From the IMG/VR virus record IMGVR_UViG_2693429562_000006: a stretch of 7,056 bases of DNA; one strand, 5' to 3'. Positions within the stretch are counted from its first letter, which is position 1. Each line of letters opens with the position of its first letter. Below the pieces are notes generated by a model that was given only the letters and a program-made list of their open reading frames with translations, was not told where the DNA came from and searched no databases. The translations under genes and the position numbers were made by a program. Source of the stretch: a virus (taxonomy: Duplodnaviria > Heunggongvirae > Uroviricota > Caudoviricetes). Shown one piece after another: positions 1,939 through 7,056 of the stretch.

Positions 1939-2233
1939 TGGGGCGGGTAAACCTGTCGTAAATTGTGCGATTGAACTGCGGGCCAGAAGAACCAGTCCGA
2001 CCGTTGTGGCACACGTTGTTGCCACTTGCGTGACGGACAATAACGGTGCTTATGTGATTGAGGCTGAGCCGGGGTATTACGAGGTTGCGCTTCACTGTAA
2101 CGGCTGGCAGCCAACCCGTGTCGGGGATATTGATGTGGCACCGACTGATGCACCGGGGACACTGAACGCGTTTCTGAATGCACCAAAGGATGGTGATTTA
2201 CGTCCGGAGGTGATGAAGTGTCAGCGCCAGTGA
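1907..2233 (+). pseudogene. Truncated side tail fibre gene: a diverged N-terminal domain (~102 aa of Stf-like sequence) followed by 6 foreign codons and a stop
   Basis: Begins [12 protein letters not shown], identical to the N-terminus of the intact stf at 2612, then runs colinear but diverged (...PGTLNAFLNAPKDGDLRPEV versus ...[20 protein letters not shown]). Similarity stops after codon ~102 (nt ~2212). The tail MKCQRQ-stop reads into the adjacent IS-like sequence. The listed ATG at 1865 lies inside the lom terminator hairpin, so 1907 is the more likely start. Confidence 0.55.
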
Positions 2234-2462
2234 TATAAGACGGTAATTCGCCATTTGGATTGTCCGCTCCACCCAACATGTTGTTTCCTTAAGGTTCTCA
2301 CACCAGAAAGGACATCAACATGCTGAGCAGAGAGGACTTTTACATGATAAAGCAAATGCGCCAGCAGGGCGCGTACATCGTCGATATTGCGACTCAGATT
2401 GGTTGCTCTGAACGGACGGTCAGACGCTACCTCAAATACCCTGAACCGCCAGCCAGAAAGAC
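2219..2462 (+). mobile_element. Left end of an IS21-family insertion sequence (IS100-like), truncated by the N gap; left boundary approximate (2211-2221)
   Basis: Stf homology ends at ~2212. The sequence from tgtcagcgcc onward carries, about 100 nt in, an ORF whose N-terminus (MLSREDFYMIKQMRQQGAYIVDIATQIGCSERTVRRYLKYPEPPARK) I recognise as the helix-turn-helix start of an IS21-family IstA transposase. Recognition is from memory, not a search. Confidence 0.5.
2320..2462 (+). CDS. istA: IstA transposase, N-terminal 47 codons only (3'-truncated at the assembly gap)
   Basis: ATG at 2320 preceded by aaagga. The HTH-like motif CSERTVRRYL is present. The ORF runs directly into the N run. Confidence 0.5.
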
Positions 2463-2473
2463 NNNNNNNNNNN
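2463..2473. other. Assembly or scaffold gap (11 N)
   Basis: A run of n characters in the sequence. The rest of the IS21-family element is not represented. Confidence 0.95.
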
Positions 2474-2547
2474 TGATGGCGGTCGCCACAGCAACACGTC
2501 TCTGGCGCACTGACGGTTTCATCGTGGGTGTCGGTTATAAATTCTGA
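2474..2547 (+). pseudogene. lom: Second-copy lom 3' remnant (5'-truncated, with an 83-bp internal deletion relative to 1687-1843)
   Basis: 2474-2507 matches 1687-1720 and 2508-2547 matches 1804-1843, ending in the same ...WRTDGFIVGVGYKF-stop. The missing block is bounded by ctggcg in copy A (1715-1720 and 1798-1803). The listed 75-aa ORF 2320-2547 is a chimera reading across the gap. Confidence 0.7.
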
Positions 2548-2574
2548 TTAGCCAGGTAACACAGTGTTATGACA

Positions 2575-2600
2575 GCCCGCCGGTTCAGGCGGGCTTTTTT
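2575..2600 (+). terminator. Putative rho-independent terminator (second copy of the lom terminator)
   Basis: gcccgcc / ggcgggc stem followed by tttttt (2595-2600). The t to c change relative to copy A adds one base pair to the stem. Confidence 0.5.
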
Positions 2601-2611
2601 GTGGGGTGAAT

Positions 2612-5600
2612 ATGGCAGTAAAGATTTCAGGTGTACTGAAAGACGGCACAGGAAAACCGGTACAGAACTGCACAATCCAGCTGAAAGCAAAACGTAACAG
2701 CACCACGGTGGTGGTGAACACGCTGGCCTCAGAAAATCCGGATGAAGCCGGGCGTTACAGCATGGACGTTGAGTACGGTCAGTACAGCGTTATTCTGTTG
2801 GTGGAAGGATTCCCGCCGTCACATGCCGGGACCATCACCGTGTATGAAGATTCCCGACCCGGTACGCTGAATGATTTTCTCGGTGCCATGACGGAGGATG
2901 ATGCCCGTCCGGAGGCACTGCGCCGTTTTGAGCTGATGGTGGAAGAGGTGGCGCGTAACGCGTCCGCGGTGGCACAGAACACGGCAGCCGCGAAGAAATC
3001 AGCCAGCGATGCCAGCACATCAGCCCGTGAGGCGGCAACCCATGCGACTGATGCTGCAGATTCAGCACGTGCAGCCAGCACGTCAGCCGGACAGGCCGCT
3101 TCGTCGGCTCAGTCAGCGTCTTCCAGCGCAGGAACGGCATCAACAAAGGCCACTGAAGCCTCAAAAAGTGCTGCCGCTGCAGAGTCCTCAAAAAGCGCGG
3201 CGGCTACCAGTGCCGGTGCGGCGAAAACGTTAGAAACGAATGCGGCAGCGTCACAACAATCAGCAGCCACTTCTGCATCCACCGCGACCACGAAAGCGTC
3301 AGAAGCTGCCACCTCAGCCCGGGATGCGTCGGCTTCAAAAGAGGCGGCAAAATCATCAGAAACGAACGCATCATCAAGCGCCAGTAGCGCAGCTTCCTCG
3401 GCGACGGCGGCTGCAAATTCTGCGAAGGCGGCCAAAACGTCCGAGACGAACGCCAGGTCTTCTGAAACGGCAGCGGGACAGAGTGCCTCAGCTGCGGCAG
3501 GCTCAAAAACAGCGGCTGCGTCGTCTGCCAGCGCCGCGTCAACAAGTGCCGGGCAGGCCTCAGCCAGTGCCACCGCCGCCGGAAAATCGGCAGAAAGCGC
3601 CGCATCATCCGCTTCAACAGCCACAACGAAGGCTGGCGAAGCCACTGAGCAGGCCACGGCAGCAGCGAGGTCAGCTTCCGCAGCGAAGACATCCGAAACG
3701 AACGCGAAAGCGTCGGAAACCCGTGCAGAATCCTCAAAAACGGCTGCCGCATCGTCCGCCAGTTCGGCGGCGTCATCGGCATCATCGGCGTCTGCTTCAA
3801 AAGATGAGGCGACCAGACAGGCGTCAGCAGCGAAGGGCAGCGCCACGACGGCATCCACGAAGGCGACAGAGGCTGCTGGTAGTGCGACGGCAGCAGCTCA
3901 GAGCAAAAGTACGGCGGAATCTGCAGCAACGCGCGCTGAGACAGCGGCAAAACGGGCAGAGGATATTGCATCCGCCGTGGCGCTTGAGGATGCGAGCACG
4001 ACGAAAAAGGGGATAGTACAGCTCAGTAGTGCGACTAACAGCACTTCCGAGTCACTGGCGGCAACACCAAAAGCCGTTAAGGCCGCGTATGACCTGGCTA
4101 ACGGGAAATACACCGCACAGGATGCAACGACAGCACAGAAAGGGATAATCCAGCTAAGCAGCGCGACCAACAGCACGTCTGAAACGCTGGCGGCAACGCC
4201 AAAGGCAGTAAAAGCAGCCAATGACAATGCTGAGAAACGTCTGCAGAAAGATCAGAACGGTGCGGATATCCCTGGCAAAGACACCTTTACGAAAAATATT
4301 GGTGCCTGCCGTGCCTTCGGTGGGTCAGTAAGCACAACAACAGGAAACTGGACGACTGCACAGTTTATCGAGTGGCTGGATTCTCAGGGAGCATTTAACC
4401 ATCCATACTGGATGTGCAAGGGTTCCTGGTCTTATGGCAATAATAAAATCATTACTGATACTGGCTGCGGTAATATTCATCTCGCCGGAGCTGTCATTGA
4501 AGTAATGGGGATAAAGTCAGCGATGACGATCCGCATTACCACTCCGACCACATCCAGCGGTGGCGGAACAACCAACGCCCAGTTTACCTATATTAATCAC
4601 GGAACAGATTATTCACCTGGCTGGCGAAGGGACTATAACTCCAGAAATAAGCCAACGGCATCAGAGATCGGGGCGCTACCGTCAGGTGGAACAGCAGTAT
4701 CATCAGTTAATCTGGCTTCAAAAGGTCGGGTAGCCGCGCTGACAGACAATACGCAGGGGGCAGCAGGTCTTGAGTTATACGAGGTGTATAACAACGGATA
4801 TCCAACAGCGTATGGAAATATCATTCACCTGAAAGGGATGACAGCCGTTGGCGAAGGTGAGTTACTCATCGGCTGGAGTGGTACAAGCGGTGCTCATGCT
4901 CCGGCATTTATTCGTTCACGACGGGATACGACCGACGCAAACTGGTCGCCGTGGGCGCAGCTTTACACCTCGGCTCATCCTCCTGCAGAGTTTTATCCAG
5001 TCGGTGCACCAATCCCGTGGCCATCAGATACCGTTCCGTCTGGTTATGCCCTGATGCAGGGGCAGACTTTTGACAAATCTGCTTACCCGAAACTTGCAGC
5101 CGCTTATCCGTCAGGCGTGATCCCTGATATGCGTGGCTGGACGATTAAGGGCAAGCCCGCCAGTGGTCGTGCCGTATTGTCTCAGGAACAGGATGGCATT
5201 AAATCGCACACCCACAGCGCCAGCGCATCCAGTACGGATTTGGGGACGAAAACCACATCGTCGTTTGATTACGGCACTAAATCCACGAATAACACCGGGG
5301 CGCATACGCACAGTCTGAGCGGCTCTACAAGTTCAGCTGGGGCCCACCAACATAGTCAGACTGGGCCCAGAACGAATAGCGGGAGTCAACCTACTGGAAT
5401 GTTTCCGGCAGGGAGTACTCAAGTTAGCGGGACTAATCAGGTTGGTATCAGTGGCTCATTAACCAGTGGCACCTCCCAATGGGTAGGTAAATCATCTTCA
5501 GAAGGAAACCATACACACTCACTGTCCGGCACAGCAGCATCTGCGGGTGCACACGCGCATACTGTCGGTATTGGTGCTCATACGCACTCTGTTGCGATTG

Positions 5601-5695
5601 GTTCACATGGACACACCATCACCGTTAACGCTGCTGGTAACGCGGAAAACACCGTCAAAAACATCGCATTTAACTATATTGTGAGGCTCGCATAA
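2612..5695 (+). CDS. stf: Side tail fibre protein, ~1027 aa, mosaic. ATG at 2612 is preferred; an upstream in-frame GTG at 2606 is the ORF-track start.
   Basis: N-terminus [20 protein letters not shown]... and C-terminus ...[31 protein letters not shown] match my recollection of lambda Stf. It contains a long Ala/Ser/Thr-rich low-complexity region (~2950-3990), two fibre repeats, the conserved GAPIPWPSD...SAYPKLA block, and HxH motif clusters in the tip. ggggtg lies upstream of the ATG. Confidence 0.9.
4004..4231 (+). repeat. Two intragenic tail-fibre repeats within stf (about 4004-4099 and 4136-4231)
   Basis: [32 protein letters not shown] and [32 protein letters not shown] are near-identical 32-aa units 44 codons apart. 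Confidence 0.6.
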
Positions 5696-6276
5696 TGGCA
5701 TTCAGAATGAGTGAACAAGCACGGACCATAAAAATTTATAACCTGCTGGCCGGAACTAATGAATTTATTGGTGAAGGTGACGCATATATTCCGCCTCATA
5801 CAGGTCTGCCTGCAAACAGTACCGATATTGCACCGCCAGATATTCCGGCTGGTTTCGTGGCTGTTTTCAACAGTGATGAGTCATCGTGGCATCTCGTTGA
5901 AGATCATCGGGGTAAAACGGTTTATGACGTGGCTTCCGGCGACGCGTTATTTATTTCTGAACTCGGCTCATTACCGGAAAATGTCACCTGGTTATCCCCG
6001 GAAGGGGAGTTTCAGAAGTGGAACGGCACAGCCTGGGTGAAGGATACGGAAGCAGAAAAACTGTTCCGGATCCGGGAGGCGGAAGAAACAAAAAACAGCC
6101 TGATGCAGGTAGCCAGTGAGCATATAGCGCCGCTTCAGGATGCTGTGGATCTGGAGATCGCAACGGAGAAAGAAACCTTGTTGCTGGAAGCTTGGAAAAA
6201 GTATCGGGTGTTGCTGAACCGTGTTGATACATCAACTGCACCGGATATTGAATGGCCAGTAGCACCTATAGGGTAA
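5695..6276 (+). CDS. tfa: Tail fibre assembly protein (chaperone for Stf)
   Basis: 193-aa [37 protein letters not shown]... resembling lambda Tfa. Its ATG overlaps the stf stop in TAATG (5693-5697), suggesting translational coupling. Confidence 0.9.
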
Positions 6277-6362
6277 ATTCGTAATGATTACCTAAATACG
6301 TTATTCTTTTGTTAAAAAAGTGATTTTGCTATAGGTAGGGAGTATGTTCTTGGATTAAGAAT

Positions 6363-6392
6363 AAAAAATCGCCATGAAAGAGCTTCATGGCG
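6363..6392 (-). terminator. Possible minus-strand rho-independent terminator
   Basis: Perfect 9-bp inverted repeat cgccatgaa (6370-6378) / ttcatggcg (6384-6392) with a 5-nt loop. The A6 run at 6363-6368 becomes a T run following the hairpin on the minus strand. Confidence 0.35.
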
Positions 6393-6541
6393 AGTACATA
6401 AACGTACAAAATGTGATGAAAGTAGAGTGGCGTAAGCCACTATATTAAGATATGACAATAGCGAAGAAAAGTAAATAACATTTTATGGACGTTTAATTGT
6501 TAATTATAAAAACTAGAGTGCCCGATATTGTTTATCTTGCT

Positions 6542-6643
6542 TTAAAATAATGTACTCAAACCAAATTTTTGAGCTAAAAGCTCAAATAATATAAATGCAA
6601 TAATAATGTTTAATAAGACAATTAGCTTGCTTTGTATTTTCAT
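6542..6643 (-). CDS. Speculative small hydrophobic ORF (33 aa, MKIQSKLIVLLNIIIAFILFELLAQKFGLSTLF)
   Basis: Hand translation of the minus strand: ATG at 6643 to TAA at 6542-6544. It has a ~18-residue hydrophobic core. There is no clear SD, and AT-rich DNA biases towards I/L/F/K codons, so this may be chance. Confidence 0.15.
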   Translation of the reverse strand: MKIQSKLIVLLNIIIAFILFELLAQKFGLSTLF

Positions 6644-6677
6644 TTCGGAATACTGTTAAGTAACTTTGATGACCCTA

Positions 6678-6706
6678 ACAATAGATCGGAATTTTCTTAG
6701 AGTCAA
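6678..6706 (-). promoter_or_regulatory. Candidate sigma70-like promoter on the minus strand, upstream of the small ORF
   Basis: On the minus strand: TTGACT (complement of + 6701-6706), a 17-bp spacer, then TATTGT (complement of + 6678-6683). This is about 35 nt upstream of the ATG at 6643. Confidence 0.2.
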
Positions 6707-7025
6707 TGGTCACTGTTTTTGCTTGCAAAGCAAATGTTTTGGTGGTTATAAGTCGTCTTAATATAGTCACGCATGCAACTTGTTCCATGCGGAGATTAAA
6801 GATTGGAATATAACGCGAAGATGGAATTAAATTACATTTGCAATAATTAATTTATTATTACTCAATAATTACCGATATTATTATTGTAAATTAATCATTA
6901 GAATGCAAAAAGAAATGTAACGGCAAAATAAGAGGACGATAGCTGAGAAAAAAGCGTGCTTTCCCAATCTGGGGCAAATCACGTCTGAATGACACCTGAA
7001 AACAGGTGGTAGCCTCAAGAAGGCT

Positions 7026-7056
7026 GGTGATGCTGCCAACTTACTGATTTAGTGTA
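7026..7056 (+). mobile_element. IS1 left terminal inverted repeat (element continues beyond the window)
   Basis: ggtgatgctgccaacttactgatttagtgta matches the IS1 left end as I recall it (GGTGATGCTGCCAACTTACTGAT...). Only 31 bp are present. Confidence 0.7.

Follow-up and report, generated by a model that had tools for sequence, protein, structure and literature searches.

YncL of Escherichia coli K-12 (b4598; NCBIfam NF000537, an equivalog family; STM14_1932/STnc1110 in Salmonella) is a 31-aa peptide with one predicted transmembrane helix. Its production causes sublethal membrane depolarization, nucleoid condensation and sensitization to pore-forming peptides, and both heat shock and minimal medium induce the chromosomal gene (PMC12542507). 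YncL is also a candidate substrate of RseP (PMC10470546), and the Salmonella yncL transcript, which is sigma-S dependent, was first catalogued as the small RNA (sRNA) STnc1110 (PMC5437024). Here we describe a YncL-like gene in an AT-rich block that follows the tail fibre assembly gene tfa in a 7,056-nt stretch of prophage DNA (IMG/VR record IMGVR_UViG_2693429562_000006), hereafter called the window. The block spans positions 6277–7025, from the stop codon of tfa (6276) to the end of an IS1 element that starts at 7026. Judged from its sequence, the gene appears to be an unannotated newcomer to the already known YncL small-protein family.

The other systems with which the locus invites comparison are the morons of lambdoid tail ends, such as lom and bor of lambda, cor of phi80 and N15, and gp15 of HK97. 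As with these, the YncL-like gene is an extra gene with its own predicted promoter and terminator, placed between or after tail genes, of deviant base composition, carried by some relatives but not by others, and expected to yield an envelope protein in the lysogen. It differs from them in being much smaller and oriented against the late operon, and its peptide has no sequence similarity to the products of lom, bor, cor or gp15. The original prediction for this DNA had recognized the position after tfa as a site for cargo of the moron type, and the block does begin directly after the tfa stop codon.

We consider it probable that the core of the block is a self-contained prophage moron that encodes a YncL paralogue, which would be expressed from the lysogen and act on the membrane. 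This core (roughly 6362–6706, minus strand, convergent with tfa) would comprise a predicted promoter, a gene of 33 codons, a long 3′ untranslated region (UTR) and a strong terminator:

6706–6678, minus strand: predicted sigma-70-type promoter, TTGACT-17-TATTGT (consensus scan)
6643–6542, minus strand: yncL-like gene of 33 codons, stop included in the coordinates, with product MKIQSKLIVLLNIIIAFILFELLAQKFGLSTLF (open reading frame and YncL similarity)
6394–6444, minus strand: conserved 3′-UTR module, consisting of a hairpin (6423–6444) and an AU-rich linker (6394–6422) (conservation and fold)
6362–6393, minus strand: intrinsic terminator, stem TCGCCATGAA/TTCATGGCGA (6393–6369) followed by a U6 tract (terminator scan and fold)

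Similarity to YncL and coding constraint

The open reading frame (ORF) at 6643–6542 is predicted to encode a single-pass inner-membrane protein of the YncL type. When the peptide was searched against NCBIfam, YncL was the sole family matched (E = 1.3e-5, 25.0 bits, profile positions 1–28 of 30). Two natural variants likewise match YncL alone, with 23.5 and 22.5 bits, and eight decoys (one reversed and seven shuffled copies of the peptide) produced no NCBIfam match. Comparison with K-12 YncL by BLASTP gives 11/28 identities and an E value of 2e-7, and 13/31 residues are identical to those of Citrobacter orthologues. We also built our own YncL hidden Markov model (HMM) from the chromosomal orthologues of E. 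coli and 11 Citrobacter species. This model gives the ORF the highest score among 98 window ORFs, with 20.5 bits (E = 1.8e-6) and a runner-up of 5.0 bits, and among the 8241 ORFs from all fetched prophage loci solely copies of the YncL-like ORF score. Searches of four block ORFs against Pfam, PHROGs and PADLOC returned nothing relevant.

The alignment reveals a common design. The 33-aa prophage peptide and YncL share M1, S5, K/R6, V9, L10, N12, A16, L19, F20, L22, K/R26, F27 and G28, so that each has a short polar N-terminus with a basic residue, a hydrophobic helix that includes N12 (the one predicted transmembrane helix of each) and a C-terminal [KR]FG. Furthermore, each gene is a short monocistronic unit that resembles an sRNA gene. 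The two also differ in several respects. Chromosomal yncL lies between patD and ortT and has a short tail, whereas the prophage copy follows tfa and has a 3′ UTR of about 175 nt with a conserved two-hairpin end. The prophage peptide terminates in LSTLF rather than WFI or WFA. Finally, the K-12 and Citrobacter genes carry AAAGGTGG ahead of the start codon, whereas no Shine–Dalgarno sequence precedes the ATG of the prophage copy (ttccgaaATG). Because of its other position and its lack of a Shine–Dalgarno sequence, the prophage gene would be a paralogue of yncL at most, not an equivalog.

Annotation routinely misses small membrane proteins. A scan of 1.84 billion proteins recovered the peptide itself and, apart from it, no more than a single frameshifted variant, which means that gene callers almost never call this ORF. 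The first 14 codons of the ORF gave 0 matches among GTDB species representatives, and a looser YncL-type pattern found only the chromosomal yncL genes of E. coli and 11 Citrobacter species in that collection; these scans thus give no evidence for a phage copy beyond E. coli. No description of a YncL-like prophage gene was found in the literature searched. A mobile, phage-borne paralogue would be linked to a chromosomal stress peptide that is itself poorly understood.

To assess coding constraint, we used 56 copies from genomes and IMG/VR contigs, which represent 35 distinct DNA variants. The ORF is intact in 35/35 variants and specifies four protein variants, and its variable sites fall mostly at third codon positions (13), with 8 at first and 2 at second positions. 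A more divergent copy, 78% identical and located in a Rac-like context (L007, L031), differs from the window ORF by 18 nucleotides that cause only 5 amino-acid replacements, all conservative. This comparison yields a dN/dS of about 0.09, and random placements of the same changes are stop-free with ≤5 replacements with p ~1e-4 in simulation. None of the remaining block ORFs, among them those of 48, 37, 35 and 31 aa, survives intact in the 78% copy. These patterns indicate that the ORF is protein-coding and under purifying selection. The absence of any sizeable ORF, as originally described, is accurate in that no block ORF reaches 60 aa (the largest, of 52 aa, spans 6881–7039 on the minus strand and runs into IS1; the next has 48 aa). 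It is misleading in that a conserved 33-codon gene occupies the minus strand. The block is not gene-free, because it holds an unannotated YncL-like 33-aa gene under purifying selection.

Two further observations concern the YncL family and phages. An unrelated IMG/VR contig (L074, 3428–3544, plus strand) encodes a 32-aa peptide, MKKAITLILMNIISALFLFFLIIQNFGFWGHE, that shares an N…LF…FG layout and scores 11.5 bits (E = 0.1) with the YncL HMM; this may be a remoter relative carried by a phage, or else a chance resemblance. Separately, KilS, a predicted sRNA from the 3′ UTR of kilR in the Rac prophage, has chromosomal yncL mRNA among its targets in a study based on RIL-seq (PMC8175672). K-12 yncL corresponds to L011 5100–5195, and targeting by KilS would represent another prophage link to this peptide family.

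Predicted transcription signals and the 3′ module

Transcription of the YncL-like gene would start near position 6671, as judged from the predicted promoter. The −35 hexamer TTGACT is kept in 34/35 variants, and the −10 hexamer reads TATTGT or TATCGT. At the other end of the unit, the terminator scan reports TCGCCATGAAGCTCTTTCATGGCGA, with 11 pairs, followed by TTTTTTATTC, at 6393–6359 on the minus strand. The terminator stems are kept in 35/35 variants, and the changes that do occur affect the loop or the base of the stem. Since the unit runs opposite to the late operon and has predicted signals of its own, we would expect it to be transcribed even in a repressed prophage. If the message is translated, the analogy with chromosomal YncL suggests that the peptide would insert into the inner membrane, where it would dissipate part of the membrane potential. 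The lysogen could then shift toward a low-activity, stress-tolerant state, or incoming phages could be hampered. Either benefit to the lysogen, whether tolerance or a defence that excludes or aborts other phages, is speculative.

A prophage peptide that would act on the membrane also calls to mind toxins. The product resembles YohP and other stress-induced small membrane proteins, as well as the type I toxins Hok, TisB, DinQ and ZorO, in having ≤50 aa and one helix, although it has no sequence match to any of them. To our knowledge, chromosomal YncL has no antitoxin. An arrangement of the type I toxin–antitoxin kind, in which a plus-strand antisense RNA checks a 33-aa hydrophobic membrane toxin, would fit a small, hydrophobic, single-helix peptide, and a long structured UTR and a prophage location are typical of such systems. 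A weak plus-strand promoter-like site is present at 6452–6481. Furthermore, YohP and YncL can depolarize the membrane when made, and YncL overproduction lowers viability (PMC12542507). However, the locus has no conserved plus-strand promoter–terminator pair and no plus-strand terminator, and no antisense partner was found for the YncL-like gene. The plus-strand −35 element is degraded in the 78% copy (L007), in which the hairpin at 6718–6734 is not conserved either, and no match to known toxin families or PADLOC models was obtained. We regard a type I system as highly improbable, and indeed as the least likely of the explanations considered here.

The 3′ UTR, which extends for about 175 nt between the ORF stop codon and the terminator, bears on a different alternative. 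Identity to the 78% copy is 91–97% in its last ~85 nt, whereas the ORF reaches 80% and the distal UTR 64%, making the 3′ module the best-conserved part of the unit. A 93-nt RNA that represents this module folds with −27.1 kcal/mol (z = −6.56 relative to shuffles), and both polymorphisms in the stem of hairpin 1 retain pairing, as G·U, in the minus-strand RNA only. The order of a hairpin, an AU-rich single strand and a terminator with a U tract is the layout of Hfq-type RNAs. The module may be an sRNA or an Hfq-binding module, or it may be an mRNA-stability element; its high identity could also mark a recombination patch.

It is therefore conceivable that the functional product is RNA, namely the last ~85–110 nt acting as a prophage sRNA that is cut from the 3′ UTR or made from its own promoter and that would control mRNAs of host or phage, with the ORF being secondary or part of a dual-function transcript. 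Conservation, fold, G·U pairing and layout all speak for this possibility, as does the fact that the Salmonella yncL transcript was long catalogued as STnc1110 (PMC5437024). Set against these traits, an Rfam search over 5600–7056 and a relaxed search over the block had IS009, inside tfa, as their single real hit; the block itself gave no match at gathering score or with E up to 0.5, and what appeared there is at chance level (MicC, E = 0.68; Esr41, E = 3.4; Aar). The 3′ module is never found apart from the ORF (827 versus 828 genomes), the divergent lineage has TTTCTT, a weakened U tract, and the recombination patch mentioned above could account for the high local identity. Only about four lineages are available, making a covariation test of the hairpins impossible. 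The dN/dS of 0.09 shows that the protein matters. We view an RNA as the main product with doubt, although as a possibility to be taken seriously. The original suggestion of an sRNA locus holds to the extent that the minus strand has an sRNA-like series of hairpin, AU-rich linker and terminator, but it overlooks the ORF under purifying selection.

A combined form of these ideas is a dual-function locus, unannotated in ~15% of complete E. coli genomes, that would encode both a membrane peptide, made in the lysogen, whose lowering of the membrane potential excludes or aborts superinfecting phages or serves tolerance, and a conserved Hfq-type sRNA, derived from the 3′ UTR, that rewires host expression. 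We consider this combination unlikely.

Several points weigh against the moron with a YncL paralogue that we favour. The YncL score of 25 bits is below the NCBIfam curated cutoff of 35 bits, and a short hydrophobic peptide weakens any homology statistic. Every known copy belongs to an E. coli prophage, and together the copies make up no more than about four lineages; with diversity this narrow, a single divergent pair carries essentially the whole selection test. Neighbouring DNA shows clear mosaic recombination, which could make the unit look more conserved than it is. The promoter is a consensus match only, in a region where promoter-like sites number 4 compared with 3.6 in shuffles, and the missing Shine–Dalgarno sequence contrasts with the AAAGGTGG of chromosomal yncL. 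In addition, no transcript, ribosome-profiling or proteomic evidence for the peptide was found.

Distribution and mosaic structure

We searched 5426 complete E. coli genomes for the block. The whole block is present in 280 of them at ~99% identity, and also in the lambdoid phage genome records mEp332, PhiR70_1 and ev099. It was proposed initially that the block could be a decayed remnant of a cargo locus. Its occurrence in so many genomes and three phage records at ~99% identity argues otherwise, as this is not the behaviour of decaying DNA. The YncL-like unit (6360–6720) is more widespread still, being present in 816/5426 genomes and in at least three prophage contexts, with no annotated feature in the RefSeq record entries listed. 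Two phage records annotate other short hypothetical ORFs within the block stretch. Conserved non-coding sequence at this position in many prophages had been named as what would speak against the original prediction; the conservation exists, but the block is coding.

The search results suggest that the prophage is a lambdoid one related to mEp332 and ev099, and that the block forms a conserved accessory segment of mosaic make-up at its tail end. When the 749-nt block is used as a query, coverage in E. coli falls into classes (1–578, 1–626, 665–749 and full length) that point to a mosaic of three modules, listed here with the feature that straddles the first junction:

6277–6854: module A, the AT-rich moron module (query 1–578, ~96% match in many genomes)
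6855–6940: module B, an 86-bp AT-rich joint (query 579–664, seen only inside the full block)
6941–7025: module C, terminal DNA of a serU-integrating prophage, cut by IS1 after its first 85 bp (query 665–749; hairpins 6993–7008 and 7011–7025)
6836–6899: a very AT-rich nest of imperfect inverted repeats (I1–I3 and I8) at the module A/B junction, including the CAATAATTA pair

Module A also occurs downstream of tfaQ in Qin-type prophages beside ydfJ' (context from L006), where the copy is followed by a second tfa 3′-end remnant and homology ends at 6854. The 78% copy of module A is the one in the Rac-like context. Module B gave no separate matches in E. coli genomes. Module C occurs alone at prophage ends in ST131, APEC, EHEC and other strains. 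The nest at 6836–6899 may be a recombination joint or a tract of the H-NS type.

A Qin-type prophage, L010, is without ~430 bp equivalent to window 6297–6726, which is the whole YncL-like transcription unit. This prophage represents either a natural deletion or an empty site, and the presence/absence pattern is that expected of a moron. The joint in L010 (strain OkiPb01681) lies at 3980–4010 and displays a short AAA microhomology. The Qin and Rac prophages of K-12 are also without the element (0 matches in the GTDB E. coli representative). A lysogen and its cured derivative, together with natural deletions of the L010 type, would offer a natural gain-of-function system for peptides of the YncL type.

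Remnants of the tfa 3′ end (…WKKYRVLL…EWP…) at L006 5580–5687 and 6345–6445 bracket AT-rich cargo in Qin-type prophages. This bracketing suggests that the conserved tfa 3′ end is a recombination joint for moron swapping. One bracketed cargo piece of the Qin type is the 65-aa hypothetical protein WP_000348576.1.

IS1, the serU fossil and the surroundings of the block

To the right of the YncL-like unit, positions 6707–7025 consist of AT-rich joint DNA and of 85 bp from the start of a fossil prophage end of the serU type, into which IS1 has inserted. The element at the window edge is as follows:

7026–7056, plus strand: left terminal inverted repeat of IS1, GGTGATGCTGCCAACTTACTGATTTAGTGTA; the window ends 31 nt into IS1

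An 81-nt sequence across the junction of block and IS1 is 100% identical to that of strain 2009C-3133 (L002), in which an IS1A transposase is annotated just downstream. Window 7026–7056 corresponds to L002 6750–6780, and the sequence there continues into an IS1 of 768 bp. The same junction is shared by 79 complete genomes.

IS1-free carriers reveal what follows the block where IS1 is absent. Their prophage adjoins ybhB/bioA and contains, in order, tfa, 1505 bp of unannotated DNA, a gene for a 247-aa AraC-family regulator, insertion sequence (IS) remnants and att/int. The regulator (L001 7506–8249; L002 7724–8467) is closest to YdeO (149 bits) and GadX (111 bits), with scores well below both cutoffs. 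In L002, the full IS1 joins the equivalent of L001 position 7300, which reveals a 550-bp adjacent deletion and no target duplication, and IS1 consequently lies 206 bp from the ATG of the regulator gene. The insertion and the 550-bp deletion may alter expression of the regulator. Thus, the proposal that IS1 disrupted a cargo locus is sound insofar as IS1 interrupts an AT-rich stretch that leads, in IS1-free relatives, to a YdeO/GadX-like AraC-family gene.

Module C in the IS1-free locus L001 extends for 195 bp further and is followed by a 62-nt 3′ fragment of the tRNA-Ser(CGA) gene serU. The next 277 bp match K-12 chromosomal DNA from downstream of serU at 97% identity. The fragment and the captured chromosomal DNA imply that the phage lineage carries the fossil end of a prophage that integrated at serU. 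The scar, carried by phages that integrate next to bio, goes back to an old excision that left the serU site imprecisely, and IS1 has inserted into this fossil prophage arm. The serU fragment and chromosome piece occupy L001 6860–7199 and about 4860–5199 in mEp332, PhiR70_1 and ev099 (L003–L005). ARAGORN finds no complete tRNA in L001 or L009.

This arrangement also bears on the possibility that the block is purely non-coding, being an AT-rich, H-NS-silenced regulatory region upstream of the AraC-family cargo gene that was severed by IS1. Such a role would suit the AT-rich composition, the continuity of the stretch in IS1-free relatives with a 1.5-kb unannotated region before the YdeO/GadX-like regulator, and the scarcity of annotation noted above. 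But module A and the ORF occur after tfaQ in hundreds of genomes with no AraC gene nearby, and the ORF has a coding pattern of substitution along with YncL similarity. A strong minus-strand terminator makes no sense in a plus-strand upstream region, and a serU fragment with 277 bp of chromosome ahead of the regulator indicates a patchwork rather than one regulatory region. We judge a purely regulatory block to be very unlikely. Because the left 578 bp occur without the AraC gene, after tfaQ in Qin-type prophages, the block is more than a promoter region for that cargo gene. The locus also shows that seemingly empty AT-rich DNA after tfa was put together by one recombination event after another, with scars in the form of tfa 3′ remnants, a serU att fossil with captured chromosome, and IS1, a view that helps to interpret prophage ends.

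The remaining features of the window are those of a lambdoid prophage tail end, located by ORF calls:

70–1176: end of J
1244–1843: lom
2606–5695: stf
5695–6276, plus strand: tfa, tail fibre assembly gene of 193 aa (homologous loci are annotated as tail fiber assembly protein)

The GC fraction is 0.315 in the block and 0.532 in the remaining window, which bears out the strong AT-richness originally reported. All five hairpins listed at the outset are also present:

6369–6393: hairpin, stem of 10–11 bp
6426–6441: hairpin, 6-bp core, or 9 bp with one mismatch
6568–6586: hairpin, 8 bp
6718–6734: hairpin, 7 bp
6993–7008: hairpin, 6 bp

Counting perfect hairpins with stems of ≥6 bp gives 13 configurations in the block, of which 9 are distinct. 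Its dinucleotide shuffles, 500 in number, have a count of 2.3 ± 1.9, and 0/500 reach 13. The direct repeat CAATAATTA, which had likewise been singled out, exists at 6841 and 6863, but a 9-mer repeat within 60 nt arises in 35% of AT-rich block shuffles and we do not regard it as significant. Positions 6556–6583 were compared by eye with Hin/Gin/Pin crossover sites, and the resemblance was unconvincing.

A full-length Rfam match to IS009 (218 bits) at window 6038–6236 on the plus strand lies wholly within the tfa coding sequence and coincides with the conserved tfa 3′ end. Farther upstream, a first stf copy (start 1907) breaks off near 2233 and is followed by the N-terminus of an IstA-like ORF of the IS21 family (2320–2462), a run of 11 N (2463–2473) and then the lom 3′ end and stf start for a second time. 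Rather than clean sequence, window 2221–2606 seems to represent a scaffold gap or a duplication mediated by an IS in the assembly.

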